Shown one piece after another: positions 17,548 through 54,424 of a stretch of DNA of 54,425 nucleotides; the first letter of the stretch is position 1; each line of letters begins with the position of its first letter. Source of the DNA: a virus (taxonomy: Duplodnaviria > Caudoviricetes). The notes under the pieces were generated by a model. It was not told the DNA's origin. It did no database searches and was given only the letters and a program-made list of their open reading frames with translations. The translations under genes were made by a program, and so were the position numbers. The stretch is taken from positions 1-54,425 of IMG/VR virus record IMGVR_UViG_3300020043_000840. One strand, written 5' to 3'.

Positions 17548-17583
17548 AGGGGAGGGTGTCTTCAAAGACACTCTCCTTTTTTT
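17548..17583 (+). terminator. Intrinsic terminator built around the 16-bp palindrome (17556-17571)
   Basis: AGGGGAGG-GTGTCTTCAAAGACAC-TCTCC-T7. Confidence 0.8.
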
Positions 17584-32100: not shown

Positions 32101-35100
32101 ATTGAAAGAAGATTTATAAATGAAAAACAAAAACCAAATAGACCAAAATTATTAGAAGCTACTCAAACAGTGTCTTCAAAGACACAAGCACCTAAGTTTG
32201 TTAAAGATATCTCTGCTCTTATTACTCCGGCTACTGTGCGTGGGTTTAGTCCACTTACTGAAAGGATTAAGAAGTTGTCGTTGAATTATGATAAACTTGT
32301 AAAGCAATATGCTAAAAAGAAAGACCCTAAAGTGCTTGCTAAGATAAAAGCTGCGGAGGCTCAAATATTAAACGATGCCAAGCAGGAGATTATTGATGCA
32401 GTAGCAAAGGTAGATGGTGTAGCTGTTCAATTTAAAGATACTAAACGTGGATTATGGGATAAGAAGTTTGAGCCATCATTTAATATGACTTTATCAATTA
32501 GTCCACAGGCGGATACTAAAAAAGTAAGTGATTTACTATTTGACTTTGCAGAAAAGTATTCTCAAGACTCATTTATATTAGAAACTGAATCTGAATTACA
32601 CGATGAATGGGTTAATGGCAATATAGCTATGCCTCTTACTGAACTTGATGAAAATAAATTACAAAATTATCCGCAAATTATTTATACATTTGCTGAACCA
32701 ATAACTGACGAACAAGTAGCAGACCTATCTATAGCGTTAGAAAATGGTGGTGTTGATGCATTTAATATAAATAATAATGAAATTAAAGTATCAGTAATTA
32801 CATTTCTTTCAGAAGAACAACAAAATAATTTAACTAAAGATGAACAATACAATGAAAAACTTAAAGACTTCCAATCAAAGTCAAGTGCAACCGCAAATGC
32901 AGTCGGGGAAATACTCGGAAGTAATGCAGTGGATGGACGAGATGTTGTCATCCAAAAATCTTCTTACCAAGGAGCAACCAACGAAGGCACCCAAGACCCA
33001 ACAAGGAAGTTCGATAGGAGTGACATTCTTAAAGCGTTCCAAGAATCAACCACAAAAGTAGAAAAACTTGCTGTTGAACTTGCTGATTTACGCCAAAAAG
33101 AAATAGACTTACAAAAAGAAGGCAAGAAATTATCTGCTGAAGACCAAACTAGATTTAACGAGTTACTTAAAAAAGTACAACCTGCTGTACAAGGTACATT
33201 TGAAGCAAATAAAAAACTTTACGAAGACGCTAAGACTGAGGTAGAAGGTATTGCACAAGATGCAATCGCTCAAGTTGACGCATCTATATCTCCATTCCCA
33301 ATTAAGCGTGCTGAGCGTGCATCTGTTAAAGCTATCAGATGGTATAATGCATTTACAGAAAAACTTGGTGATGGTTCACGTGTAAATATTGTAGTAGATA
33401 CTGACGCTAATGCTGACAAAGTATTTAAAATTATTGATGAGAAGTATCCGGGTGATAATGAAGTAAGAAGAATAACAGAGACTACAGACTTAGGTTACCC
33501 AAAAAGACTTATTGAAATTCGTACATCTAATGGTACCATTGCAGAAATTCAAGTGATTACTAATGAAGCATATTTAGCTAAAGATGGTATTCAAGGATTT
33601 ACCGGAGATAGCAAACAAAAAGCTACAGCTAAACAAAAATTAGATGCGGTACGTGCTCGTCTTGGTTGGAATATACCTGATGGTCTTGGGCATTATTTCT
33701 ATGAGATTCAAAGAGATACTAATGTAGACGAGAACTTAAGAGACGAGGCTGCAAGATTAAGCGACCTATACTATGATGCGTTTACTAATCCGAAATCTAC
33801 ACTTACTGAGTCATTTATGAGGGATGTAGAAACATTTAAAAAGAATGTAGATGCTGCTGACAAATCAGAATGGGACGTAGGTAATAATGGCAAGGCTCCT
33901 CAATCTTTAATAGATTATAAGCCAACTAAGGCTGTTGTAACTGCAGAAGTAGAGGAAGAGGTGTTTCAACCAATTACTGCGAAAGATGTAAAGACGGATG
34001 CATTTACAAAAGATAATGCTTTAGATTATGAAGAAGATGAAAGGGAGTCTGACAGTGGAAGAATAAGTACATACTTGTCATCTATAACTGTTGAAGCAAC
34101 AAATGCTGATGGAGACCCTATTGGAACTGTAACTAAATTAACAGACGAGGATAAAATATTCTATTTCACTGTTGAGGATTCAGAAGGAAATCAACTTAAC
34201 TTAGATGGATATGATACATTAGGAGAGGCTAAGAAGGCACTTGCTGATAGCTATAATAAGATTCAAAAGAAAGAATTTGATAAGGCTGCTAAAAAGAAAG
34301 CAAAAGCTGCAGAAAAAGCTGCTCAAAAAGTAGGGGGTATTATTGAAACAGTAGATGATTTACTTGCATTAGACCCTAATGATAAAACTACATTGCAAAA
34401 GAGCTCTGAATTTCTTGATAGAGCAATAAAAGATATTGACAAATTTGGTAAAGAAAATACAAGTTTTGGTATTGCATTACCTGTAGTTAAAAAAATTCTT
34501 CAAGCAATTAAGGTTTTAGTAGATGCAGGTATATCAATACAAGAAGCTATCAAGAGAGTGTCTGCAGATAACAATGTATCTCAAGATTCGGTAAAGGATA
34601 TTTTAAATATCACTCCTATTCAAAAAGAATATGATGCCTTAATGATTAAGGTAGATGAATTAATTGCTCGCCAAAAATCAAGAGGAGTTGACAACGCTAA
34701 GATTACAAGAAATGTAGATACATATATCCGTAACTCAGATGTTTATGACAATGCCAATGATGCTCAGAAGAAGATTATGGAGCGTGAGGGCAGAAGTAAA
34801 ATGGAGGCACCTGCAAGACGTTCTGTGTCAATGGGACGTGTATTGGGTGCTTTAAAAGATATTACGAATATCTCAAGACAAGAAAAGATGCAAGTCATCA
34901 AGCAGATAAGAGAGTTGTCAAGAGATGCTGCAAAAGATTTAGCTAATGAGATTAGAGACTTGGCTAAAGCAGGCAAGATTACAGTTAACCAAGCGGCTAA
35001 TGTTATAGCAAGATTTGGTAAAGTAAATATGCTAAATGAAGTGTCAGTGTCAAACTTTGTAGATTATATGTCTAAGGTATTTACTGATGCCGAGTATGTA

Positions 35101-38100
35101 AATAAAATTGAACAAGCTAAGAGTAGATTAAAAACTGCAAAGAAAAACATTGCTACTAAGATTGGTATTGCTGATGGATTAAACCTTTCATTACAGAAGT
35201 TATTCTCTATAAATCCAACGCTTATACCGGAGACTTCTCTTGATAAATATCTTGAGTTAGTAAATATGTTTGGTCAAAGGCAAGCTGTTCTTTCTCTTGA
35301 AGAGAAGTCGGAAGTAACTAAAGACGTTGATTCAATTCTTAATGAAATAAATGAAGAGCAATCAGTAGCAAACGAATTAGCTGATAGGTTTAATTATTTT
35401 GAAGGAAAAGTATTTGATGATGACGGTAATTTGAAATATGCTGACACTATCAATAAGATGGTTGAGGAAGAAGTTATTGATGAAAAAGAAGCAGAAATTA
35501 TGCGTAAGTATAAGTCTGACATTGCTCCTCAGGTAGGCAAAACAAAGATGACTGAGCAAGAAATTGCAGAAGAAAAAGCTGAGTTGTTAGAAGTTTTAGA
35601 TAAAACACAAGTTGAAACAAGTGGATTAGCTACTGCTGATGAACGTAAATTAGCTAATCGTCTGAAGGATTTATTGTCAACAAGTGCTGTTAAAGAATTA
35701 AACAATACAGATTTAAAGAACTTAATAAAAGTTATTGATAACATAAATAATAACTATTTACCTCATTATGCATACTTGATGGTAAAGAAATTAAATTCAA
35801 AGAATAATGCAAAGACTTTAACATCTGCAATTAAAAGTGCTGTTGTTGCCAAGTTATCAGGTCTTTATTCAAGAGTAAAATCTTTGATTACAAGAAGAGG
35901 AGCAATAGAGGAAATGATAAGGAGAAATCCATTATTTAATATAGACCAATTATTTGGAAACTATAAAACAAAAGATATATTTAATTCTATTTTAAGTAAA
36001 GCGGCTGAAGGTGAGGCTAAGTTTAAAGCAGAACTTAAAAAAATTCAAAACATATTAGAGAAGGCAGAAGAAAAAGTTGCTAAGTCATTTAAACTTGACC
36101 CAAATAAAACGTTAATGTCTAAGTTTAAAATGATGACTTATATGGTTCAGCTTGAGAATGACTCTAACCAAGGTAGCAAGCAAGTTAATCCTGCATCTGA
36201 GTATTTAAAGGCAACTATCAAGCACATTGACGAAGGTAAATCTGCTTTTGGAGAACGTGATTCAGATATGTTGCAAGAGATACTTGACAAGTACTCTGAC
36301 GCAGATGGCAATATTGATAATCAAAAGTTATACGATTCATTTAATCAAGCAGAAAAAGATGCAATTAATGACATACGTGGCGTGAACGAATCACTTAGAG
36401 AGAAAGCCGAATATACTGCAGCAATTATTCGTGGAGATAGGATTAATCCACTTACAAACTATGTGCATTTAAACGTGCTTCAGGATAATCAACCAAACGA
36501 TTTAACTGCAGGAACTGCTTTCATTACTGAATATAATAATTCAATGAGACCATCTACAAGAGCTAAGTCATTGATAGCAAGAACGGGCAAAGTAAGTCCA
36601 TTGAACTTTGATATATTTGCATCTGCTCAACGTGGTGCCAAGTTTGTATTGATGGATTATAATTTAACAGAGCCTATTCAAACTGCTCGTCAAACTATTA
36701 ATGAAACAATAGCAAACTTTGAAGAAGAAGGTAGAATACCTAAAGAAAAAAGACAGATTATCAATGCAATCAATTCTGCATTAGAAGAAACTACCGAGAA
36801 TTTATTGACTAATTCTTTTGTGACTACTTCTATAGCCGATGATGCTGTTGATTATATTAATAAACAAGGTTATCGTGCTGTTCTTGCGGGTACATCAAGA
36901 TTTGTTTCAGAGTTAAGTTCAAACATTGGATTTGCTGTTATATCAGACCCTCAAGCATTAAACACAGGAATAGAAAATAGAGGTATCGTAATGTCTACTG
37001 AAGCTCCTGTTATTATGGAGAATGTGAATAGCAAGCAAACAAGTAGAATATTCCCTACAGATACTTTATCAGGCAAGATGATTGACACTAATATACTTCA
37101 ACAAACAGGTGGTATTAAAGGCGGAAAATCAAAGAACCCTGTTGCAAATAAGACTCAACAGATTTGGAATTTATCAGGAAAGAAATATACTAATATAGTT
37201 GAATTGATAGCTGACAGTTTAATATCTACACCGGATAAATTAATTATGCGTCCAATGTGGTTTGGTTCATTTGCTAATCATTTTAAAAGTATTACAGGTG
37301 AAAATGTAGACTTTGAGAAGATTGCAGCGAATGATGAAACTTATATGGAAGAGAATAAAGAAGCCATCGATAAAGCAAAGGACTATGCTGATGAAAGGTC
37401 TGTAATGGTTGGAGCTACTGATAATGCATTTATGGGAATCCTTAAGGGTTCAGTTAAACCTAATCAAAGTGTATCATTAAGAGCGTTTAACAACTTCAAT
37501 AACTTTATGACTAAGTTCTTGATTTTTGAATTTGTCACTGCTCGTACAGCTATCAACGCAGCAATGGGTAATGGGTCTTTAAGTAGAAAGCAAGGAGCTG
37601 CAGTACTTGGTGCTGTTACTACAAGAATGATTACTTATGGATTAATTACTCAAATGTTGGGTTCAGGTCTTATGGGATTATTCTTTGATGACCAAGAACC
37701 TGAAGATGATAAGTCATTTTTGCAAAAAGTTGGACAACAAATGACATCTGCATTTACATCATTGATATTTGGTAGAGATTTTGGCAATGCAACCAAGGCA
37801 ATAGTAAACTATGGTTTAGAAAAAGGCAATGAAAAGTATCTTGATTTCTTAAGAGAGGGAGAATACGACCCGTATAAAGATGCTATTCAATACACAATTG
37901 TACCTCCTGAAAAGAAAGGGAAAGAAAGAGATTTATCTGATTTCTTATTGAATATGGGTGGGGCATTTGGTCCTTCATTGAAAACTGCAGATTTAATTGT
38001 TCGTAAAGCTCTAGGAGCTGAGAAGAAAACAGAAGATGCTATTTCAAGAAGCGAAGAAGAAAACTATGTTCGTATCCCATTAGAGATATTAGGTAATGCA

Positions 38101-38514
38101 GGATTCATTCCTTTATATAAAGATATTCGTAAAGCTGTAATGAAATCAATATACAGCAGCCTTGAAAGCTCAGGTAAATCAACTAATAAAAGTTCAAGAA
38201 AAGGAATATCAGGTGGAGAAAGTAGTTCATCAAAATTACAAGGATACGAAAGCCAATCTGATATGAAGCGTTATAACCCTGAACTTTGGGATAGAACATA
38301 TGGTCCTAATGCTCCTGACTATGATGAAGAGCAAGCTAAGAAAGCAATTAAAAAAACTAAAGATAGTTTAGAAAGAGCGATGAAGGATGAGATGTACGAC
38401 TATATTCCTAAAGCTAAAGGAGGATTTGGTTCATCAGGATTTGGCTCGGGAGGTTTTGGAGGAAAGCAAAGTAGGAGCAAGGGAGGATTTGGGACAGCAA
38501 AATTTGGTCAGTAA
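29173..38514 (+). CDS. Giant internal virion (polyvalent) protein with RelA/SpoT-like domain
   Basis: 3113 aa, Cys-free, G/A-rich membrane-like N-terminal region, GGTEEMTTEVLQQ motif, RSH-like motifs at about 33290-33710, last gene of the + strand arm. Confidence 0.7.
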   Translation: MPDLKQVLKDFVATSNSGKYTDDATLLSKFPELKGYDINTLKDFVATSNSGRYPNENDLFLQFPEFGLGVKKKVATASSSGSGSSASQKQDEGILDYIGNVASTIGEEVSSAASAAKEGVVAAAEYVGEGIKEGYQYAGNVAAGINKGLLKVGSESVKGLGTFLQWGVGKDALNTSIVDFGNYLSKEIDEITPQDEKFKGSVSDQFSQALGNVAGLIATGGTSKAISLAGKAPSALQMAELAAQVAPKTAGVAATALKTVGSQIASPVGIVGGLQMGQSEFERAKAAGATDKQAYDVFLKNAVVGSALEAIPVTGFLKRFEKASEGGVTNYLKTKAIGGLVGGTEEMTTEVLQQLYANKTAKDIYNTNQNLFEGVGESGGLGFGVGFLLNAMGANAKILKKEGKTQEAAVVEKQAEEFREQMKNGGPSSYTISGIKVNPDVAVPFIQNLSGADLANANIQIVNNPELNNQVQQKIVTHSVREQVRQANPELNEPSLNAIADLEIQLRALDGNTTQTGKDKAAAIRTQIKNIQENQLQEEAVALTKEESVNKLIKIFVPKIEDPNFEITNWDKNLVSQIKDNPIQFIDSLLDLNKREIEANPQGANVGLLNNLTKKLEEAKKDYLNAEAAQAVQPTQAVQPAQPTQPAQVTAEPTIVVHSPVNGFGLQYSENVAQENITAPQDPRGMVTEEQQSELNRGKSIINEDTTLENGDKKVSILSEAYDAFGRKGVSVFDFVIPSNNQSTADGVKLIIEEVRKENLFTDLSPNELINQTVSKVKEYLDSNKTNTQQNAIQEQTTNEGLLLSQAAKLGLQQMGEGNIQPQVTTTRTQEVAPTQPQEVVNINIKNIVDEEGNINTYSLKAAVVDSPALINVNKNTIENTVGYLRQIADKVNDKELNDTVTYLEDASNMLLSIKNMEEGKRNEFLSNQENFYSDKKPPSEVLKRLNDWAKVLKGNTAKNNAERLLKEQYQQVLAEIERRFINEKQKPNRPKLLEATQTVSSKTQAPKFVKDISALITPATVRGFSPLTERIKKLSLNYDKLVKQYAKKKDPKVLAKIKAAEAQILNDAKQEIIDAVAKVDGVAVQFKDTKRGLWDKKFEPSFNMTLSISPQADTKKVSDLLFDFAEKYSQDSFILETESELHDEWVNGNIAMPLTELDENKLQNYPQIIYTFAEPITDEQVADLSIALENGGVDAFNINNNEIKVSVITFLSEEQQNNLTKDEQYNEKLKDFQSKSSATANAVGEILGSNAVDGRDVVIQKSSYQGATNEGTQDPTRKFDRSDILKAFQESTTKVEKLAVELADLRQKEIDLQKEGKKLSAEDQTRFNELLKKVQPAVQGTFEANKKLYEDAKTEVEGIAQDAIAQVDASISPFPIKRAERASVKAIRWYNAFTEKLGDGSRVNIVVDTDANADKVFKIIDEKYPGDNEVRRITETTDLGYPKRLIEIRTSNGTIAEIQVITNEAYLAKDGIQGFTGDSKQKATAKQKLDAVRARLGWNIPDGLGHYFYEIQRDTNVDENLRDEAARLSDLYYDAFTNPKSTLTESFMRDVETFKKNVDAADKSEWDVGNNGKAPQSLIDYKPTKAVVTAEVEEEVFQPITAKDVKTDAFTKDNALDYEEDERESDSGRISTYLSSITVEATNADGDPIGTVTKLTDEDKIFYFTVEDSEGNQLNLDGYDTLGEAKKALADSYNKIQKKEFDKAAKKKAKAAEKAAQKVGGIIETVDDLLALDPNDKTTLQKSSEFLDRAIKDIDKFGKENTSFGIALPVVKKILQAIKVLVDAGISIQEAIKRVSADNNVSQDSVKDILNITPIQKEYDALMIKVDELIARQKSRGVDNAKITRNVDTYIRNSDVYDNANDAQKKIMEREGRSKMEAPARRSVSMGRVLGALKDITNISRQEKMQVIKQIRELSRDAAKDLANEIRDLAKAGKITVNQAANVIARFGKVNMLNEVSVSNFVDYMSKVFTDAEYVNKIEQAKSRLKTAKKNIATKIGIADGLNLSLQKLFSINPTLIPETSLDKYLELVNMFGQRQAVLSLEEKSEVTKDVDSILNEINEEQSVANELADRFNYFEGKVFDDDGNLKYADTINKMVEEEVIDEKEAEIMRKYKSDIAPQVGKTKMTEQEIAEEKAELLEVLDKTQVETSGLATADERKLANRLKDLLSTSAVKELNNTDLKNLIKVIDNINNNYLPHYAYLMVKKLNSKNNAKTLTSAIKSAVVAKLSGLYSRVKSLITRRGAIEEMIRRNPLFNIDQLFGNYKTKDIFNSILSKAAEGEAKFKAELKKIQNILEKAEEKVAKSFKLDPNKTLMSKFKMMTYMVQLENDSNQGSKQVNPASEYLKATIKHIDEGKSAFGERDSDMLQEILDKYSDADGNIDNQKLYDSFNQAEKDAINDIRGVNESLREKAEYTAAIIRGDRINPLTNYVHLNVLQDNQPNDLTAGTAFITEYNNSMRPSTRAKSLIARTGKVSPLNFDIFASAQRGAKFVLMDYNLTEPIQTARQTINETIANFEEEGRIPKEKRQIINAINSALEETTENLLTNSFVTTSIADDAVDYINKQGYRAVLAGTSRFVSELSSNIGFAVISDPQALNTGIENRGIVMSTEAPVIMENVNSKQTSRIFPTDTLSGKMIDTNILQQTGGIKGGKSKNPVANKTQQIWNLSGKKYTNIVELIADSLISTPDKLIMRPMWFGSFANHFKSITGENVDFEKIAANDETYMEENKEAIDKAKDYADERSVMVGATDNAFMGILKGSVKPNQSVSLRAFNNFNNFMTKFLIFEFVTARTAINAAMGNGSLSRKQGAAVLGAVTTRMITYGLITQMLGSGLMGLFFDDQEPEDDKSFLQKVGQQMTSAFTSLIFGRDFGNATKAIVNYGLEKGNEKYLDFLREGEYDPYKDAIQYTIVPPEKKGKERDLSDFLLNMGGAFGPSLKTADLIVRKALGAEKKTEDAISRSEEENYVRIPLEILGNAGFIPLYKDIRKAVMKSIYSSLESSGKSTNKSSRKGISGGESSSSKLQGYESQSDMKRYNPELWDRTYGPNAPDYDEEQAKKAIKKTKDSLERAMKDEMYDYIPKAKGGFGSSGFGSGGFGGKQSRSKGGFGTAKFGQ
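31544..31693 (+). CDS. Candidate overprinted 49-aa basic protein nested in the giant gene (alternative frame)
   Basis: MPFKNKQQMKACYSAKQQNWDCSKWAKETSNLKSLPQGPKKSLLRNRKK*; A-rich leader AAATAAAACAAACACTCAACAAA-ATG. Confidence 0.5.
   Translation: MPFKNKQQMKACYSAKQQNWDCSKWAKETSNLKSLPQGPKKSLLRNRKK
32170..32185. repeat. 16-bp palindromic motif copy (GTGTCTTCAAAGACAC) inside the giant gene
   Basis: Read directly; encodes VSSKT. Confidence 0.85.
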
Positions 38515-41579: not shown

Positions 41580-43025
41580 TTACAATAACGTTTTTTCAAA
41601 GTGCTTTAGTGTGTAGTCTTTTTTCTTTGTGACAGCTTTATAGATGTCGTGTTCAATGCCTCCCTTAGCAAAAATCCAATATACTTGATTCTCTAGCCTT
41701 TCCTTTGTAGTCATTCGGTCTTTGCTCTGCCAATAACTCGTAGCACTAAAGTCTATATTGTAGTAAACCAAGTACTCAGCTTGTTTAAGACTGATTCCCT
41801 CACGTCCACTTACAATTTGTAGAGCTATAGATTTACCGGTGTCTTCAAAGACACTCAACTCTGAGGTTAGGTCATCTCCAAAGACTTGCTTGAGTGCATT
41901 GTATTCTTCTTTAAACTTGTAGAAGATTCCAATTTTACATCCTTCAAACTGCTCTTTGATAAACTCAGCCTTGCTCAAGTCAAGTATCATACTATTCCCA
42001 CTCTCAAATTTAATGGTACCACTGCATAACTGATGCACTTTCATCATCAATTTAACAGGAGTATCTGCCAAAATTATATCTTCTTTTCCTTCTACAACTA
42101 AATCTTTCTTTAATTTTTTAATAATTTTATAAGTAGACTCTTTCATTTCAACCTCAAGTATCTCTTCTGTGGTCTCGGTCATAAACCCTGCCTCTTGTTG
42201 CGTGTAGTTAATTGTGTACGGTTCCATTGCTTTAATGATGGTGTCAAGTCCTCCACTGTAGTCTTTTACAAGCAGCCCGTTAATCTTGCGTTGCTTCACG
42301 TTTACAAACTTATCGCAGAATCTATAGAAGTTTTTAAACTCAGAGAATGGATTGTTTGGTATCGCATAAACCTGATGATACATCTGAGAATAACTCTCAG
42401 GTGTTGGTGTCCCACTAAGTAGTATCACCATTGGTCTATGCTTTTTAATTACCTCTGCAACTAACTCCGCACGTCCACTTGGCTTTGGGAATGCACCCAT
42501 ACTATGAGCCTCATCGCAGATAACTAAATCCCACTTCTTATCGTTCATAACTAGGTGTAGGCTTTCATAATTGATGACAGATAGGGAGTACGTTGGTTTT
42601 AACGCACTGTAGTCGTCTTCAATTGAGCTAATTGCTTTCTTTTTAGTAATGAACAGCACATTTTTTATGCCACACATATCTGCTATACCAAGACTTGTAA
42701 GGGTTTTACCCGTACGAACTTCCATTGCAAGGTATAAGAATCTGTATTTTGAAAGTATCTCATACCCACTATGAATAATGTCAACCTGATAGTCCCTGAA
42801 CTGAAATTTATTTTGTTCCATCTCATATAGGTTTTTATAATACTCGCAACTGCTGACAATCTTATCTATTATATTCGGGTCTGTGTTATACTTAAGTGCT
42901 TCTCTAATCTCAATTGCCTTGCCTCTACCTGACTTAACAGTTTCGGTTTTAAGAACAACTTTTTTTAGAGATTCACAGTAATCCAACATTGCCTTGTTGC
43001 TGTATCCTGAAGTTCTTTCAATCAT
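41580..43025 (-). CDS. SF2 (SNF2-like) helicase
   Basis: FRDYQ, EVRTGKT, DEAH, LSGTP, SGREGISL, YWQSKDR. Confidence 0.9.
   Translation of the reverse strand: MIERTSGYSNKAMLDYCESLKKVVLKTETVKSGRGKAIEIREALKYNTDPNIIDKIVSSCEYYKNLYEMEQNKFQFRDYQVDIIHSGYEILSKYRFLYLAMEVRTGKTLTSLGIADMCGIKNVLFITKKKAISSIEDDYSALKPTYSLSVINYESLHLVMNDKKWDLVICDEAHSMGAFPKPSGRAELVAEVIKKHRPMVILLSGTPTPESYSQMYHQVYAIPNNPFSEFKNFYRFCDKFVNVKQRKINGLLVKDYSGGLDTIIKAMEPYTINYTQQEAGFMTETTEEILEVEMKESTYKIIKKLKKDLVVEGKEDIILADTPVKLMMKVHQLCSGTIKFESGNSMILDLSKAEFIKEQFEGCKIGIFYKFKEEYNALKQVFGDDLTSELSVFEDTGKSIALQIVSGREGISLKQAEYLVYYNIDFSATSYWQSKDRMTTKERLENQVYWIFAKGGIEHDIYKAVTKKKDYTLKHFEKTLL
41839..41854. repeat. 16-bp palindromic motif copy (GTGTCTTCAAAGACAC) inside the helicase gene
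   Basis: Read directly; overlaps codons for SVFEDT on the - strand. Confidence 0.85.
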
Positions 43026-46017: not shown

Positions 46018-46344
46018 CTAAAATGGTAATGTACCATCGTCTTCTTCATCTTCAACCGCAGGTTTTGTCTGCTTAGGTTTTGACTGAGGCTTCGCCTCTG
46101 CTTTCTCTGATTGTGGTTTAGCACCACCGCCTTGCGTTGGCTCGTAGGTATCCAACTCAACATAATGATTGCCACTACGTGCAGTCTTAATGTTTAGGTT
46201 TACCCATCCACCTTTCTCGTGCTGTCTGATGAATGCTACCGCTTCATCTACTTTCATTGATAATCTCCCAACTACAAAGTCAGGTGCCTTTTCGTTTCTC
46301 TTAAATGAGAATCCGTCTGCAAAGATTTTTTCGTCTTGTGCCAT
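46018..46344 (-). CDS. Putative single-stranded DNA-binding protein
   Basis: Small beta-rich domain, flexible linker, acidic tail EDEEDDGTLPF; follows the exonuclease and annealing genes. Confidence 0.6.
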   Translation of the reverse strand: MAQDEKIFADGFSFKRNEKAPDFVVGRLSMKVDEAVAFIRQHEKGGWVNLNIKTARSGNHYVELDTYEPTQGGGAKPQSEKAEAKPQSKPKQTKPAVEDEEDDGTLPF

Positions 46345-46363
46345 TGTTCTTGAATTTATTTTT

Positions 46364-46417
46364 GTCCCAATCTATTTAAACTGAATGATAACCTTTGGGA
46401 CTAAGCCAACACTCAGT
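46364..46417 (-). ncRNA. Candidate cis-regulatory H-type pseudoknot in the SSB-like gene leader
   Basis: ACUGAGUGUUGGCUU pairs with AGGUUAUCAUUCAGU (four G-U pairs, one U-U mismatch); loop AGUCCCAA is complementary to downstream UUGGGAC. Confidence 0.55.
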
Positions 46418-46423
46418 ATCGTA

Positions 46424-46439
46424 GTGTCTTTAAAGACAC
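46424..46439. repeat. 16-bp perfect palindrome GTGTCTTTAAAGACAC
   Basis: Read directly; 6 nt after the exonuclease stop. Confidence 0.9.
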
Positions 46440-49701: not shown

Positions 49702-49814
49702 AAAAATTTGATTAAGATTACTAAAAGTATTGCCGTGAAAACTAACATAGCCAATGGCACCGATATAAATATATAATATAGAATGCCTAATAAAAAGTTA
49801 AAACTTTGTCTCAT
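49677..49814 (-). CDS. Small membrane peptide (45 aa)
   Basis: MRQSFNFLLGILYYIFISVPLAMLVFTAILLVILIKFLCKK...; ATG 4 nt after the upstream stop. Confidence 0.55.
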   Translation of the reverse strand: MRQSFNFLLGILYYIFISVPLAMLVFTAILLVILIKFLCKKITTR

Positions 49815-49818
49815 AGGT

Positions 49819-50043
49819 TTAGAATGATATGGTTTCAAAATTATAATACAATACAATTGTAGCCTTGGGGTGCTTACTTTGTAATGCTGAGATATAATCC
49901 TCATTGTCATACAATATCTCATTCTCCCTTTCGTAGTCTACCATAGGCTGAATGATTTTTCTTACTTGTTCTTCGCTTAGTGAAGTCATCAGGTAGAAGT
50001 CTTCTTCTCCCCAAGCACTCGTGTTGATTTTAAATACTTGCAT
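49819..50043 (-). CDS. Hypothetical protein downstream of hammerhead 1 (74 aa)
   Basis: ATG 50043 (MQVFKINT...); the longer track ORF only reads through the ribozyme. Confidence 0.7.
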   Translation of the reverse strand: MQVFKINTSAWGEEDFYLMTSLSEEQVRKIIQPMVDYERENEILYDNEDYISALQSKHPKATIVLYYNFETISF

Positions 50044-50063
50044 CTTTGTGGTTTGATTAAATT

Positions 50064-50115
50064 TCCGTTTCATCCTTTCGGACTCATCAGTCGGGATAAC
50101 ACATCCCGATACGGA
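50064..50115 (-). ncRNA. Type III hammerhead ribozyme 1
   Basis: UCCGU-A / UCGGGAU-GUGUU-AUCCCGA / CUGAUGA / GUCC-GAAA-GGAU / GAA-ACGGA; predicted cut after GUA (50110|50109). Confidence 0.93.
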
Positions 50116-50120
50116 GGATA

Positions 50121-50136
50121 GTGTCTTTAAAGACAC
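50121..50136. repeat. 16-bp perfect palindrome, extended by flanking pairs to about 50115-50143
   Basis: - strand AGGGTA-GTGTCTTTAAAGACAC-TATCCT. Confidence 0.9.
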
Positions 50137-50150
50137 TACCCTAAGTGGGA

Positions 50151-51269
50151 CTAAGGTCTAAATCTTAAAACCTCAGTCTCAGTGAACCACTCATCGCAAC
50201 CACTACAATGATAATTTGCGAACGCATCGTGCTCTAAATCGTGAAAGCAATTTACACATATAGGTTTCTCATCCTCTATGTTGAAGTCGCAATCGTCACA
50301 CTCATCGTCCAATATGTCTAACAAGCATACGCTCTTGGGCTCATCATATCCCATTTGGGAAAATATGCTTTGATACTTTTCGCTTTCTCTCTTGTCCTCC
50401 TTCTCCCAATAACTCAATGGTCTTGTGTCCTGAGTGTAGGTGCTGTGATGCTGTTTGCCATCTGCCTTTTCACGTATGTTAAAGTATACCCAACACTTAA
50501 GCACTCCGGTCTTGGTCTTTATGTCAATCTGCTTCCTTCTGTACCAATCAGGGTGACCCTCCAATCTATCAAGGTTTGCCAATACACTGCTACTCACTTT
50601 GAATATGTCCACCTCCACGTGATGACCTTGTCCACTCTTCTCAATCAAGTAAGGCAATCCACTAATGACAAGCGGATACTTTTTCTTTGTCGTTCCTTTA
50701 GATATAAATTTGGATGCACTCAAGTAACTATGATAGTTACTATACCCTTTCTTTAACGTGCCATACACTGCAATTAAATTGTCCTCAAGCACATTGTCTT
50801 TGCTGTACCATACGCCATCTCTCTGACTCCACAACTCTTTGTTGTAGATTTGGTATGTCCTGCTGTGCGTGTTAACTGACACGAACCTGCACTCGTACTG
50901 CTCCAACTCCTTCTTCCACTTGTGGCGTGGTATATCTCCTAGATTCTCTGCTAGTACCTTTGAGTCACTCTTCTTGACGTTACCAAGGTTTCTAATTGTT
51001 CCGTTCATCATAAGCCATTCCTGTTTGTTGTTCCCGCATCTGAACGGATGCGTATTTTCTTTATTGATAGCACCAATGGTAGCGTATCTAAAGTGAGCAA
51101 TGAATGGTCTCTCTGTGTCAAGTACTTTGTACTCTGATGACTTGTGATATGTTACCTCAAAGGTATCTAACCACACAACCCCCAACCCGTGAGGATTGAT
51201 TCGTGCTGAAGTCTTTGCAACTTCCTGAGGGACTTTCTTCCCCTTCTGCTTGATAATGATTACACACAT
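50151..51269 (-). CDS. Class II glutamine amidotransferase fused to gamma-glutamylcyclotransferase and a C-terminal Zn-ribbon
   Basis: N-terminal MC, NPHGLG, HFRYAT.G...NTHPF, NG, SDS; AVYGTLKKG...LDRLEG; CxxC...CxxC. Confidence 0.85.
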   Translation of the reverse strand: MCVIIIKQKGKKVPQEVAKTSARINPHGLGVVWLDTFEVTYHKSSEYKVLDTERPFIAHFRYATIGAINKENTHPFRCGNNKQEWLMMNGTIRNLGNVKKSDSKVLAENLGDIPRHKWKKELEQYECRFVSVNTHSRTYQIYNKELWSQRDGVWYSKDNVLEDNLIAVYGTLKKGYSNYHSYLSASKFISKGTTKKKYPLVISGLPYLIEKSGQGHHVEVDIFKVSSSVLANLDRLEGHPDWYRRKQIDIKTKTGVLKCWVYFNIREKADGKQHHSTYTQDTRPLSYWEKEDKRESEKYQSIFSQMGYDEPKSVCLLDILDDECDDCDFNIEDEKPICVNCFHDLEHDAFANYHCSGCDEWFTETEVLRFRP

Positions 51270-51291
51270 AAGCTAAATTGATTTGTGGGCA

Positions 51292-51307
51292 ATGTCTTTG
51301 AAGACAT
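51292..51307. repeat. Palindrome variant ATGTCTTTGAAGACAT between promoter and GATase start
   Basis: Read directly. Confidence 0.8.
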
Positions 51308-51335
51308 AGAACCCGATTAATGAACTGATAATGAA

Positions 51336-51367
51336 CAAAGATACGACATAAATTAGACATCTCCAAA
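51336..51367 (-). promoter_or_regulatory. Complete Bacteroidota sigma-A-type promoter TTTG-N20-TATCTTTG
   Basis: Both -33 and -7 elements with canonical spacing, upstream of GATase-GGCT. Confidence 0.75.
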
Positions 51368-51368
51368 T

Positions 51369-51527
51369 TTATTTTTTGATTGCCTTGAATTTTGCACGCT
51401 CCAAATAAGGATGTTCTCCTATAAATTTGTAGAACGTTTTGTCGATAGCCTCCCACTTTGTGTGGGCGACTACTGACAGCACAAAAGTTTTCTCGTAGTA
51501 AACTTTAAAAAAATACTGATTCTCCAT
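51369..51527 (-). CDS. Hypothetical 52-aa protein (not in ORF track)
   Basis: MENQYFFKVYYEKTFVLSVVAHTKWEAIDK...; AAATCAAATCAAAATG leader. Confidence 0.65.
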   Translation of the reverse strand: MENQYFFKVYYEKTFVLSVVAHTKWEAIDKTFYKFIGEHPYLERAKFKAIKK

Positions 51528-51545
51528 TTTGATTTGATTTAAGAT

Positions 51546-51836
51546 TTAATAATCATCCTCCAATCTCTCACCTGCATACGACTCATCGAAGTATCTATCC
51601 TTACGATATGGATACTTGTCACTATCGTAGCACTTGTCACACCAATCTCCCGTTCCGTATCCGTACGCATCGCATCTGCTTTCTACGAACTCCTTTGTGT
51701 CCTTAGTTCCACACTCTCTACATCTTGGTAGATTCTCGTGGCATCTCTCACAAAGGTTATCCTCGAACCACATATCGTGGCGTCCTTGTGGGTGCCCACA
51801 TAGTGAGCACTCCCAAACATCATTTGCTTTTGTCAT
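51546..51836 (-). CDS. Cys-rich zinc-finger-like protein
   Basis: Four CxxC pairs in 96 aa. Confidence 0.7.
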   Translation of the reverse strand: MTKANDVWECSLCGHPQGRHDMWFEDNLCERCHENLPRCRECGTKDTKEFVESRCDAYGYGTGDWCDKCYDSDKYPYRKDRYFDESYAGERLEDDY

Positions 51837-52042
51837 TACTTGGATTTTTTTACGTGATAGATTCTGATTCCGTCTTTTATCTTTACGTCAATGGGATACA
51901 ACTCCTCAAGGATTGAAAGATAATCTTTGTAGTTTTTCAACTCTGCCTTAGGCAAGTACAACAACCTATCAATGATAGGCTGTAGGATTTCGTTACGCTC
52001 TCTCACCTCTTGTTCGGGTGCGAATTGTTTTTGCTTTGTCAT
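51836..52042 (-). CDS. Hypothetical protein downstream of hammerhead 2 (68 aa)
   Basis: ATG 52042 (MTKQKQF...) with AAATCAAATCAAGATG leader. Confidence 0.7.
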   Translation of the reverse strand: MTKQKQFAPEQEVRERNEILQPIIDRLLYLPKAELKNYKDYLSILEELYPIDVKIKDGIRIYHVKKSK

Positions 52043-52063
52043 CTTGATTTGATTTAAGTGGTT

Positions 52064-52115
52064 TCCGTTTCGTCCTTTTGGACTCATCAGCCTAAGCGAT
52101 ACACTCAGGGACGGA
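52064..52115 (-). ncRNA. Type III hammerhead ribozyme 2
   Basis: UCCGU-C / CCUGAG-UGUAUCG-CUUAGG / CUGAUGA / GUCC-AAAA-GGAC / GAA-ACGGA; predicted cut after GUC (52110|52109). Confidence 0.95.
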
Positions 52116-52131
52116 GTGTCTTTAAAGACAC
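52116..52131. repeat. 16-bp perfect palindrome GTGTCTTTAAAGACAC abutting hammerhead 2
   Basis: Read directly. Confidence 0.9.
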
Positions 52132-52140
52132 CCCCACTTG

Positions 52141-52716
52141 TTAAGCTATGCAATAACTCTCATTTAAGATTCTCACTGCACTATCTACGTCCTCAGGTCG
52201 AACAACTAAAAAGAAGTTAGGGCAATACATCCCTTCGGTATCTGACTCCATCCTTCTTGTTGGTATCCCTGACACGTTAAGCATTGCCTCCACCGGCTCA
52301 AGGCTTACCTCCATAATTGTATGGAACACCGCATAGATTGGTTTGCTGTATCCCTCACTCCTTATCCACTCGCTCGTTAAGTCGAACTCAGGCTCCTGCA
52401 CATTCTCCTCAGGGATTGAGACATCAACACCACGTGAAAAACTATCAACGTGAACCCAACTGCCATCCCATTCCACCTCATTCAAGTACCACTTACCACG
52501 TCTCTGAATAATATGAACGCTAGATAATCCATTGAGCCTCTCTTTTGTAGTTGAGCTATCCCATCCCGCATTTGTTATCCATAGCCCATCCCTCCTGATT
52601 TCAGCTATCTTGTTACCGAATAGCCATAGGCTCTCGCCATTTGTACGGCTGTTGCCGATTGTAAGTGAACGGCTGTTCTGAAAAGCGTTCACAATGTCTC
52701 TTGTGATTTTTCTCAT
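52141..52716 (-). CDS. Hypothetical early-type phage protein
   Basis: 191 aa, L.GNKIA...ITNAGW...TTKERLNGL. Confidence 0.75.
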   Translation of the reverse strand: MRKITRDIVNAFQNSRSLTIGNSRTNGESLWLFGNKIAEIRRDGLWITNAGWDSSTTKERLNGLSSVHIIQRRGKWYLNEVEWDGSWVHVDSFSRGVDVSIPEENVQEPEFDLTSEWIRSEGYSKPIYAVFHTIMEVSLEPVEAMLNVSGIPTRRMESDTEGMYCPNFFLVVRPEDVDSAVRILNESYCIA

Positions 52717-52829
52717 TTGATTTGATTTTTAGGTGCCTCGCTCTCTCTGAAGTCTTTGATACATTGGTATGCAAAGAAAACAGCGAAAGCAATTGTGCAA
52801 GTGAATGCAAAAATGTAATTAATGCTCAT
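52713..52829 (-). CDS. Small membrane peptide (38 aa, not in ORF track)
   Basis: MSINYIFAFTCTIAFAVFFAYQCIKDFRESEAPKNQIK*; ATGA overlap with the next gene. Confidence 0.55.
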   Translation of the reverse strand: MSINYIFAFTCTIAFAVFFAYQCIKDFRESEAPKNQIK

Positions 52830-52848
52830 TGTCAATTGATTGTAGTGG

Positions 52849-53043
52849 TTACTTAATAATTTTCTTTAACTCACCCTCGATAACTATCATAGATACAGCA
52901 AGGGATAAAACTAATAACACCCAAACACCTAGGAAAGCCCCCATTGAGGAACTACCCTTAGATAGTAAATTGATTCCCGCAATTTGTACTAATAAGCATA
53001 AGCCTAAAGTGATTCCGATTTTTGTGATGATTCTCTTTTTCAT
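52849..53043 (-). CDS. Two-TM membrane peptide downstream of hammerhead 3 (64 aa)
   Basis: ATG 53043 (MKKRIITKIGITLGLCLLV...) with AAATCAAATCAAATG leader. Confidence 0.7.
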   Translation of the reverse strand: MKKRIITKIGITLGLCLLVQIAGINLLSKGSSSMGAFLGVWVLLVLSLAVSMIVIEGELKKIIK

Positions 53044-53064
53044 TTGATTTGATTTTTGTGGTTT

Positions 53065-53115
53065 ACTGTTTCGTTCTTTTGAACTCATCAGGAGGAGCAC
53101 TCACTCCCCGACAGT
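53065..53115 (-). ncRNA. Type III hammerhead ribozyme 3
   Basis: ACUGU-C / GGGGAG-UGAGUG-CUCCUC / CUGAUGA / GUUC-AAAA-GAAC / GAA-ACAGU; predicted cut after GUC (53110|53109). Confidence 0.95.
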
Positions 53116-53119
53116 GGGA

Positions 53120-53135
53120 GTGTCTTTAAAGACAC
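53120..53135. repeat. 16-bp perfect palindrome GTGTCTTTAAAGACAC
   Basis: - strand GGGG-GTGTCTTTAAAGACAC-TCCC. Confidence 0.9.
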
Positions 53136-53146
53136 CCCCGTAAGCC

Positions 53147-54019
53147 TTAACTCAAGTACATTGATATGTCTTGATGTATCTCACCTTTCAGTATGAACGC
53201 TCTGAATAACTTTGATAATCTCAACACCTCATTAGCCTCATCCTCATTGCCATTGTACATTGATAGCACAATAGGTTTGATTTTCTTAAGTAAGCCATCG
53301 TGCGACCCATTAGGCGTTGCAATGCTGTAATTAACAACCTCGTAAAATAGCTCATATCTCCTCATCATTTGCTTAACCGATTGGAAACGACTAGGAACTC
53401 TAAACTCTAGGCATCCACCCTTTACAAGGGCTAATTGGTACTTATGGTGCCAATTGTTAGACTCCTCGCTTTTTTGCATCCTGTTGTTATATCTGCAATA
53501 GCTGTTTGAAAGACGCTTTTTAAACAAGGCGTAAATGATACCGCAATTTTTACGGATAGCTTCTCTTAACTCACCACCACTCATCCCGTCACACGCTATC
53601 GTGATGTGACCGCCACATCGTCTATCGGACGGGCTAAATCTATCATCGATAATCTTTTCCGCCTTGTGCATCATATCATACACCTTCGTCCTCCATTGAC
53701 CCGCGGGTAGCAATGGTAATACGTGGGTCACCGCTTCGTACCCGCAAGACCCGTCACGCTCAAACCCGCAAAACAATTCATATTCACGTACCGCATTTCG
53801 TCAAAGTTGGTTTTTCTCGACCTCAAACCCGATAGTGAATTTAGACTCATACTCACCATCCTCAAACCTAATTGCACTACGCTGTTGAGCGGGCTTAAGC
53901 CCTGAAATGTCAATAGCGTGCTTGCTCTTGTTTAAAAATAGTGGTGAGGGTTTCCCGTGGTAACTTGCCACTTGCCCCCTTCGGCTCTCGCCTGTTTTTG
54001 TGTAAATAATTCCGTTCAT
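53147..54019 (-). CDS. Putative amidoligase (COOH-NH2 ligase / glutamine synthetase-like) interrupted by one in-frame TGA at 53801-53803
   Basis: IGFEVEK NQL*RNAVREYELFCG FERDGS..YEAVT...CGGHITI...LEFR; the two track ORFs are in the same frame. Confidence 0.75.
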
Positions 54020-54040: not shown

Positions 54041-54424
54041 TTATCTATTTTCTAAACTAAATCTTAGTACACTTATTGCCTCCGCTATTTGCTCGTCCGT
54101 GTTCGTGGTTTTCAATAAACCATTCGCATCGATACGTACGGAAACATTACCGCCCTCACCCTTGTAAGTGAATGTTAGGATGGTTTCAACACGTGTCTCA
54201 ACTTGAGGCTCATCTCCACCCTCGCTCTCGCTCTCACTCTCTCCACCCTCGCTCTCACTCTCTCCACCCGTATTCACTTGCTTAGCGAATTTCAATAAAC
54301 CCTCAAGTGAACGATTCGGCTCCTCACCTCTCGCCTCTACCTCATTGCACTTTGTGTTGAACGATTCAATTACAGACTCCTCAAGGCGTCCCGCCTTTAC
54401 TACTTTGTAGAAAAAAGACTTTTG
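54041..54424 (-). CDS. Partial hypothetical protein (runs off the window) with GGESESE low-complexity linker
   Basis: Frame stays open from 54424 to the stop at 54041. Confidence 0.65.
   Translation of the reverse strand, partial: QKSFFYKVVKAGRLEESVIESFNTKCNEVEARGEEPNRSLEGLLKFAKQVNTGGESESEGGESESESEGGDEPQVETRVETILTFTYKGEGGNVSVRIDANGLLKTTNTDEQIAEAISVLRFSLENR

Follow-up and report, generated by a model that had tools for sequence, protein, structure and literature searches.

Three type III hammerhead ribozymes, here termed HH1, HH2 and HH3, are present between genes on the minus strand of the virus record IMGVR_UViG_3300020043_000840 (Duplodnaviria; Caudoviricetes). The stretch that we analysed, called the window, is this whole record of 54,425 bases, whose completeness is estimated at 90%. 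The three copies are almost certainly genuine type III hammerheads under selection, as judged from their sequences and those of their relatives, and each is directly preceded by a conserved hairpin that was absent from an initial annotation of the same DNA. We propose that these ribozymes probably cut a long minus-strand early message into separate mRNAs. The plus-strand half of the window carries terminase, portal, capsid-like and tail-fibre genes. A minus-strand block that runs from 54425 down to approximately 38515 contains many small open reading frames (ORFs), followed by genes for Sak (a single-strand annealing protein), a PD-(D/E)XK protein, a primase-helicase-like protein and an SNF2 helicase. 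All three hammerhead sites are found among the small ORFs of this block, on the coding strand, and the small-gene block can reasonably be called an early-type operon, as it was in the initial annotation.

Each site, read along the minus strand, consists of the 5′ strand of stem III, a GUH cleavage triplet, the stem I hairpin, CUGAUGA, the stem II hairpin, GAAA and the 3′ strand of stem III. HH1 has the stem III pair ACUGU/ACAGU, the triplet GUC, a stem I of GGGGAG/CUCCUC with one G-U pair, the loop I sequence UGAGUG, a stem II of GUUC/GAAC and an AAAA loop II. The corresponding elements of HH2 are UCCGU/ACGGA for stem III, GUC, CCUGAG/CUUAGG with one G-U pair for stem I, GUCC/GGAC for stem II and AAAA for loop II. 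HH3 shares the stem III sequences of HH2, and carries the triplet GUA, a stem I of UCGGGA/UCCCGA, a stem II of GUCC/GGAU that includes a G10.1-U11.1 wobble, and a GAAA loop II. The catalytic core (CUGAUGA, GAAA and UH) matches the consensus throughout in the three copies, with H17 never being G. Stems I and II are closed by loops and stem III is open, which is the type III topology. The letters of all three copies thus read as the initial annotation had described them, including intact cores, three stems, a loop I that starts with UG and an RAAA loop II, and similar loops are found in the related modules described below. The cleavage positions predicted here also agree with those given before. 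That all three hammerheads are active we infer from their sequences, as was done previously.

The covariance model for Hammerhead type III (Rfam RF00008, Hammerhead_3; clan CL00010) aligns to all three copies over model positions 1-54 of 54 when the region 49800-53400 is searched with an E-value threshold. The scores are 43.5 (HH1), 40.4 (HH2) and 40.9 (HH3) bits, with E values from 2e-7 to 1.4e-6. The copies therefore resemble this class in having a full core, three helices, an open stem III and a full-length alignment. At the Rfam gathering threshold no match is obtained in the window, because the copies score under 48.5 bits. Consequently, the Rfam test that had been suggested for these sites gives a full-length match in every case, but each match falls short of a cut-off that is a database criterion and not a biochemical one. 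The copies depart from the RF00008 consensus in having a 4-nt loop II (NAAA, not ~8 nt), a 6-7-nt loop I that starts with UG, and a stem III of 3-5 bp. Core and stems are not the cause of the lost bits, which are due to the 4-nt loop II and the longer loop I.

A covariance model built from related family modules (termed R1) assigns 76.6 bits to HH1, 72.1 bits to HH3 and 67.1 bits to HH2, whereas the next best place in the whole window scores 9.0 bits with filters off. Furthermore, the bare core pattern CTGATGA-N8-30-GAAA has six matches in the window versus 1.16 expected, and six were reached in 0 of 100 shuffles. The gap in R1 scores and the excess of core patterns indicate that there are exactly three copies, far beyond chance. 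When HH2 and HH3 are folded in isolation, the minimum-energy structure is the hammerhead fold, which also appears in the centroid of HH1 and in the in-context centroid of HH3.

To establish how these elements vary, viral contigs were scanned for a palindromic hairpin followed by CTGATGA, which yielded 68 loci on 61 distinct contigs that are mostly 35-65 kb in length. For alignment, 88 distinct hairpin-plus-hammerhead modules were extracted, with GAAA also being required. The palindrome, CTGATGA and GAAA are fixed by these steps, and hence the invariance of the core columns in the 88 modules is partly by construction and only the stems and loops supply free evidence. This free evidence is extensive. 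Among 2119 pair cells, 96.8% hold standard pairs, compared with 79.9% after shuffling and 38-46% when pairing partners are slid, and 403 cells are changed on both sides versus 116 in the shuffled set. Compensatory changes are found at 16 of the 25 pairs. Stem I is 99.8% paired and all six of its pairs covary, as do four of five pairs in stem III and three of four (the inner ones) in stem II. Covariation of the stems, which had been noticed among the three window copies, therefore extends across the 88 modules, and the type III assignment is borne out by these modules as well as by the full-length RF00008 alignment.

The loops are similarly constrained, in that loop I begins with UG in 84 of 88 rows and loop II is NAAA in 76 of 88, features that fit loop-loop contacts. 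The 10.1-11.1 pair is G-C in 60 modules (including HH1 and HH2), G-U in one (HH3) and non-standard (U-U, A-A or U-C) in 27. Its identity is associated with position 17. C17 co-occurs with G-C in 49 modules, A-A in three and U-C in one; A17 with U-U in 15, G-C in 11 and G-U in one; and U17 with A-A in seven and U-U in one. The rows are related, and this association may reflect descent rather than structure. An outer helix (AAGUGG/CCACUU) can also be drawn around HH2, but it is invariant in orthologues and so shows no covariation.

A search of related loci with R1 returned 168 matches in 77 loci, which together with the three in the window give 129 distinct modules. Five complete relatives (58.8-64.9 kb) carry 3, 4, 4, 4 and 4 hammerheads (19 in total), in each case on one strand and within 3-5 kb. 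The 191-aa ORF upstream of HH2 has relatives in nine loci (68-74% protein identity), and in all nine a hammerhead begins 26-95 nt past the gene. Further hammerheads occur ~0.4-1.0 kb upstream of the gene start and ~2 kb downstream. The array is thus syntenic. The family is large, with roughly 249 relatives seen. As is typical of clustered phage hammerheads, several copies are co-oriented with the genes and situated between ORFs, presumably on a single shared transcript. This synteny, together with the covariation, supports the earlier proposal that the ribozymes are under selection.

The same data bear on the idea that the modules are selfish or residual, with a cassette that spreads between intergenic sites by recombination and is tolerated without benefit to expression. 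Neighbouring genes vary across the family, near-identical cassettes recur within a genome, and the genes flanked by prophage hammerheads are likewise described as not constant (Perreault et al., 2011; PMC3088659). A selfish element would not be expected, however, to retain pairing in all three stems by compensatory changes, to keep a tight position relative to stop codon and ATG, to occupy orthologous sites in 9 of 9 relatives at 68-74% protein identity, or to be restricted to one strand and one 3-5-kb region. We therefore regard this explanation as very improbable.

The placement of the modules between genes is highly regular. An ATG-initiated ORF of at least 35 codons is located downstream in 123 of 129 modules, at a median of 18 nt from the model match (interquartile range 16-23), and an ORF stop codon is located upstream in 124 of 129, at a median of 32 nt before the match. 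For the modules in the window, the ATG is 17, 17 and 16 nt downstream and the stop codon 29, 23 and 33 nt upstream. The resulting layout is fixed: a stop codon, a GC-rich hairpin, the hammerhead, an A-rich leader of ~20 nt, and an ATG. Cleavage in the window would leave upstream fragments that end 31-41 nt past their stop codons and downstream messages with a leader of 66-67 nt, made up of the ribozyme remnant and the ~20 A-rich nucleotides.

The hairpin of each window module is built on the palindrome GTGTCTTTAAAGACAC, found at 53120-53135, 52116-52131 and 50121-50136 and extended by G-C-rich pairs. It starts a few nucleotides past the upstream stop codon and reaches up to or into the 5′ strand of stem III, with which it has zero (HH1), three (HH2) or one (HH3) nucleotides in common. 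In the family, 0-2 nt separate the 3′ end of the hairpin from position 16.3 in 120 of 127 modules, so the hairpin abuts or overlaps the outer pairs of a stem III that is only 3-5 bp long. The median hairpin energy is -15.9 kcal/mol. The exact palindrome is upstream in 105 of the 129 modules and missing from 24, a ratio that is biased since loci were fetched by the palindrome. Most of the 24 palindrome-free modules carry another GC-rich hairpin at the same place, some with GAAA or UUCG loops, and a few have no hairpin and share an upstream motif instead.

This architecture suggests how the modules could act. A long minus-strand message would cover the small genes at the right end of the ~54-kb record, with the ribozymes inside it. 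As the polymerase moves on, the hairpin would fold first and the ribozyme would fold behind it, cutting after GUH at 5-7 nt past the hairpin. The freed upstream mRNA would terminate in the hairpin plus a few nucleotides with a 2′,3′-cyclic phosphate, giving it the appearance of a terminated transcript though transcription continues. The downstream mRNA would begin with a 5′-OH and two small ribozyme hairpins, followed by an open leader. The outcome would be separate mRNAs of ~1.0 and ~2.0 kb plus their neighbours, and the stability and translation of each would then be independent of neighbouring cistrons. In other bacteria, 3′ hairpins and 5′-OH ends are known to stabilise mRNA. We infer that transcription passes through the sites, that cleavage takes place in vivo and that it has a stabilising or insulating effect; a combined function in RNA processing and end protection seems to us somewhat likely.

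Several observations weigh against this proposal. None of the 21 listed sequencing runs that contain this stretch is on record as RNA, and transcription and cleavage are deduced from DNA sequence. The stabilising effects are carried over from other bacteria to the host of this phage. All three copies are under the curated RF00008 cut-off. HH3 is the sole case of G-U at 10.1-11.1 among the 88 modules, and may be slower because this wobble replaces a pair that is G-C in 60 of them. The in-context minimum-energy folds of the HH1 and HH2 modules lack stem III, whose bases are taken by the hairpin or the flanks, so that a hairpin overlapping stem III might impede folding instead of assisting it. 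The energy models ignore the tertiary contacts of hammerheads, which makes this evidence weak, but it is real. Finally, the palindrome is far commoner than the hammerheads. Of 333 palindrome contexts, with true palindromes counted on each strand, a hammerhead core follows in 104 and is missing from the other 229. Because the palindrome is commoner than the hammerheads and also lies within ORFs, the hairpin must have a separate role that our proposal does not explain.

The intimate contact between hairpin and ribozyme could alternatively mean that the modules are gated switches, in which early expression is timed by competition for stem III. The competitor would be the sequence-invariant hairpin, perhaps with a phage or host protein on it, or a short upstream sequence that imitates the 3′ strand of stem III. 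Consistent with this idea, the hairpin base has 1-3 nt in common with stem III in HH2 and HH3, the gap is 0-2 nt in most modules, and the in-context folds of HH1 and HH2 favour alternative structures. Moreover, an RCR trinucleotide complementary to the YGU of stem III is found just 5′ of the hairpin in ~45% of 127 modules, and its sequence tracks that of stem III (RCG with CGU, 13 versus 4; RCA with UGU, 27 versus 7). It is a possible weak competitor helix, but a 3-bp competitor has little strength and these counts include related modules individually. The abundance of the 16-nt core, at 10-15 copies per genome (counted by strand) in relatives versus 0 for a reversed control and with copies also within ORFs, is as expected for a recognised site. 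No binding protein was identified, however, the invariance of the palindrome is partly by construction, and a sequence-specific reader of the hairpin cannot be general because 24 of 129 modules use unrelated hairpins or none. On balance, a gated switch is unlikely.

Copies of the palindrome outside the modules indicate what the hairpin may do on its own. In the window, GTGTCTTYAAAGACAC occurs nine times with at most three mismatches, the three hammerhead sites included, compared with 0.31 expected. Three copies are inside ORFs (terminase, the SNF2 helicase and a 3113-aa ORF), and the copy at 17556-17571 follows the capsid-like gene and precedes seven T residues, which makes it terminator-like. 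Only 22 of the 229 hammerhead-free contexts have a T run. An asymmetric TTCAAA form of the core is found on the ribozyme strand in the hammerhead region of 5 of 5 relatives searched. Another follower is a tRNA-like gene, which lies directly past the palindromic hairpin in many relatives (L084-L100), downstream of the PD-(D/E)XK gene (examples are L086:790-898, L092:1976-2067 and L100:1677-1751). This gene has normal acceptor and T arms and large insertions; the Rfam tRNA model scores 33-42 bits in 3 of 10 loci scanned, and ARAGORN reports a tRNA in 2 of 13 loci scanned, just one of them at the hairpin-adjacent place. In the window no tRNA was found, and the tRNA-like element is likewise missing. 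The tRNA-like gene is likely to mark an RNase P site, and cutting right after the hairpin consequently seems to be a recurrent theme. The T-run copy, the tRNA-like neighbour and the strand-matched TTCAAA form fit a role for the hairpin as an end structure at the RNA level.

One extension of these observations would be a phage-wide punctuation system in which the invariant 16-nt hairpin serves as the recognised RNA element and the cut is set by what comes next, be it a hammerhead, a plain leader or an aberrant tRNA-like substrate of RNase P. Because the hairpin base has nucleotides in common with stem III, folding of the ribozyme would be gated by a protein on the hairpin, and the hammerheads would be natural protein-controlled ones that time the early genes. 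We consider this reading as a whole distinctly unlikely.

The hammerhead-free copies could also be taken to mean that the hairpin is a transcription signal, either promoter-like or a pause or terminator, acting on DNA or nascent RNA, with the hammerhead trimming the 5′ leader and its triphosphate or cutting read-through transcripts. Many of these copies are indeed located ~20-25 nt before an ATG, the T-run copy resembles a true terminator, and the 3113-aa protein of the virion module could in principle, as a matter of speculation, be a virion RNA polymerase. However, the gap between the hairpin and the 5′ strand of stem III is 0-2 nt, and transcription that starts past the hairpin would omit the substrate strand. 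Furthermore, the hairpins are close behind stop codons, variant modules have RNA-type GAAA or UUCG loops, a scan for sigma-70-type promoters shows no enrichment (20 versus 22.9 expected), and no polymerase domain was found in the 3113-aa protein by Pfam, PHROG and PDB comparisons. A transcription signal is therefore quite improbable.

Viroid-like and retrozyme RNAs have a topology that matches excision between two hammerheads. Pairs of hammerheads in the phage RNA could excise the segment between them, whose 5′-OH and cyclic-phosphate ends would be joined by the ribozyme or by an RtcB-type ligase to give circular or spliced RNAs. The ends of predicted segment B (the 3′ strand of HH2 and the 5′ strand of HH3) would rebuild a perfect 5-bp stem III, and 35% of 69 neighbouring pairs in the family are fully compatible. 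Neighbours nevertheless pair no better than random family pairs (mean 3.49 versus 3.53 contiguous pairs; permutation p = 0.63), and the HH1-HH2 chimera has just two contiguous pairs. Perreault et al. (2011; PMC3088659) raised the possibility of spliced or circular products and detected none. Circularisation is very unlikely on this evidence.

We return to the proposal that the ribozymes process a long message, for which related elements provide some precedent. HH3 matches an element in 66 Pseudomonas phage records, including PaP3, with nothing annotated under the match in almost all of them. This PaP3/LUZ24-like hammerhead is 87.5-89.6% identical to HH3 over 47-48 nt, stem I and loop I included, with 89.6% in PaP3. 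In phage Clew-1 a long hairpin immediately precedes the element and the ATG of gene 2 immediately follows it, and positions 10.1-11.1 are U-U. More generally, the element of PaP3-like phages lies between genes near the early end, where it is immediately followed by a start codon and immediately preceded by a long hairpin, and has U at 11.1 as in HH3. It differs in being a single copy with U10.1-U11.1 and an AUG that overlaps stem III, whereas the window has three copies, G at 10.1 and an extra leader of ~20 nt. The phage group of the window is unrelated to the PaP3-like phages, and apart from this element the only similarity found was a stretch of 180 nt shared with one further record. The Fig. 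S6 legend of Perreault et al. (2011; PMC3088659) includes, among active core variants, a PaP3 hammerhead from a phage intergenic region, which is presumably the HH3-like locus. The word 'ribozyme' has 0 occurrences in the LUZ24 transcriptome paper (PMC10914365).

Multiple hammerheads that flank genes in prophages were described by the same authors, including a triple arrangement around ardA in Agrobacterium tumefaciens in which, as in the window, several hammerheads on one transcript bracket genes or short blocks (PMC3088659). They reported that clustered hammerheads in prophage transcripts of ~2 kb all cleaved in vitro, and proposed that polycistronic phage RNA is processed in this way to mRNAs the length of one gene or one operon, a role like the one that we favour. 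The family described here differs from these clusters in that it comprises virulent-looking uncultured phages whose 3-4 copies are all type III and form a syntenic array, and in that each copy is fused to an upstream hairpin, a structure that goes unmentioned in the passages on clusters in that text. Another likeness is with HHphage of the haloviruses HF1 and HF2, a hammerhead that precedes by a few nucleotides the first gene on an early polycistronic transcript, for which a mapped 5′ end is near the cleavage site (PMC3088659). HHphage differs in belonging to an archaeal virus, having a variant core and being present as a single copy. Phage hammerheads have been known since 2011, but according to a 2019 review (PMC6765202) the purpose of bacterial and phage hammerheads is still to be defined. 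Our literature search found no paper on the hammerheads of this phage family or on the hairpin-hammerhead module, although the supplements of Perreault et al. may hold members.

The proposed arrangement is also reminiscent of two systems that do not involve natural phage hammerheads. In phage T7, RNase III cleaves the long early transcript between cistrons, and the upstream mRNA retains a hairpin at its 3′ end. The T7 sites are double-stranded and are processed by an enzyme of the host, whereas here the RNA itself would cut, beside the hairpin and not within it. Insulators of the RiboJ type place an engineered hammerhead before a coding sequence, which removes upstream context and gives a defined 5′ leader. 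The extra hairpin of RiboJ is downstream of the ribozyme; the hairpin described here is upstream and would stay with the upstream fragment.

Much of this is already known: type III hammerheads as a class, clusters of hammerheads in phages together with their proposed role in processing polycistronic RNA (both from the 2011 paper, PMC3088659), and the PaP3 relative. The additions made here are modest, if useful: a syntenic array of 3-4 ribozymes in a large family of uncultured phages, a fixed module that joins hairpin and ribozyme, and a subfamily whose scores are under the Rfam cut-off. This whole subfamily goes unannotated. With dozens of related genomes that each carry 3-4 syntenic ribozymes, the family is a clean natural system for testing the purpose of hammerheads, with internal contrasts in which the same hairpin is accompanied by a hammerhead, a tRNA-like element, a T run or nothing. 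In synthetic operons, the module could also be used as a compact insulator of natural origin.

Table 1. Coordinates of hammerheads, hairpins, predicted RNA segments and palindrome copies in the window.
Feature	Position	Strand	Description
Hammerhead 1 (HH1, type III)	53061-53117	-	RF00008 43.5 bits, model 1-54; R1 76.6 bits; stem III 5′ strand 53115-53111; C17 53110; predicted cut between 53110 and 53109
Hairpin 1	53116-53139	-	GGGGGUGUC / UUUAAA / GACACUCCC; forms in in-context fold; begins 7 nt past TAA stop (53149-53147) of ORF 53147-53776; ends directly at stem III
Hammerhead 2 (HH2, type III)	52060-52117	-	RF00008 40.4 bits; R1 67.1 bits; stem III 5′ strand 52115-52111; C17 52110; predicted cut between 52110 and 52109
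Hairpin 2	52113-52135	-	3′ arm has 3 nt (UCC, 52115-52113) in common with HH2 stem III; follows TAA stop (52143-52141) of 191-aa Kyano_Gp96-like ORF 52141-52716
Hammerhead 3 (HH3, type III)	50060-50117	-	RF00008 40.9 bits; R1 72.1 bits; stem III 5′ strand 50115-50111; A17 50110; predicted cut between 50110 and 50109; G10.1-U11.1 wobble
Hairpin 3	50115-50142	-	AGGGUAGUGUC / UUUAAA / GACACUAUCCU; 1 nt in common with stem III; follows TAG stop (50153-50151) of 372-aa GATase-like + GGACT ORF 50151-51269
Predicted processed segment A	52110-53109	-	1000 nt, ends predicted from cleavage sites; 66-nt 5′ leader, 64-aa ORF 52849-53043, short frame 52613-52810, 191-aa ORF 52141-52716; would end in hairpin 2
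Predicted processed segment B	50110-52109	-	2000 nt, ends predicted likewise; ORFs 51836-52042 (68 aa), 51546-51836 (96 aa), 51369-51527 (52 aa), 50151-51269 (372 aa); degenerate hairpin copy 51292-51307; would end in hairpin 3
First ORF past HH3	49819-50043	-	74 aa; ATG 66 nt from predicted cut
Palindrome copies besides hammerhead sites	10483-10498, 17556-17571, 32170-32185, 41839-41854, 46424-46439, 51292-51307

The three predicted cleavage sites are exactly 2000 and 1000 nt apart. Model-match starts in relatives L053, L023, L018 and L062 are spaced by 818-1017 and 2006-2341 nt, and near-identical orthologous modules were found in other contigs. Because spacings vary in relatives and such orthologues exist, the round numbers are taken as coincidence.

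A fourth, decayed hammerhead was suspected after the hairpin at 46424-46439 from a likeness to stem I of HH2. R1 finds none there and matches 0 of 80 orthologous loci, and the candidate was rejected. The sequence instead belongs to another conserved element, with two interleaved helices, that precedes ORF 46018-46344. This leader (46345-46424, minus strand) is pseudoknot-like. In 13 sequences, its helix 2 shows 100% pairing and 5 of the 7 pairs covary. Covariation of helix 1 is visible by eye, but the alignment register is off, with 51% pairing and a better score for a +1 slide. The ORF itself encodes 108 aa, has no Pfam family and is located just after the Sak annealing protein and PD-(D/E)XK genes. 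An autoregulatory leader is a speculation at this point.

The 372-aa ORF, which lies between the degenerate hairpin at 51292 and HH3, contains a GGACT (gamma-glutamyl cyclotransferase) domain (83.8 bits), and its N-terminal part has a weak class-II glutamine amidotransferase-like match under the Pfam cut-offs. In relatives the corresponding gene, which starts MCV, often has the hairpin without a hammerhead upstream. The 3113-aa ORF (29173-38514, plus strand) closes the structural block. It has no Pfam family, only an unnamed PHROG match at residues 2218-3054, and a weak match at residues 1351-1537 (E 2.3e-5) to PDB 6ox6 (Tas1), none of which supports its candidacy as a virion RNA polymerase. 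Finally, a short tandem repeat of GGTGGAGAGAGTGAGAGCGAG-like units, seen by eye at ~54215-54275 on the minus strand, is in frame in the ORF at the window edge and encodes Gly/Glu/Ser-rich repeats.

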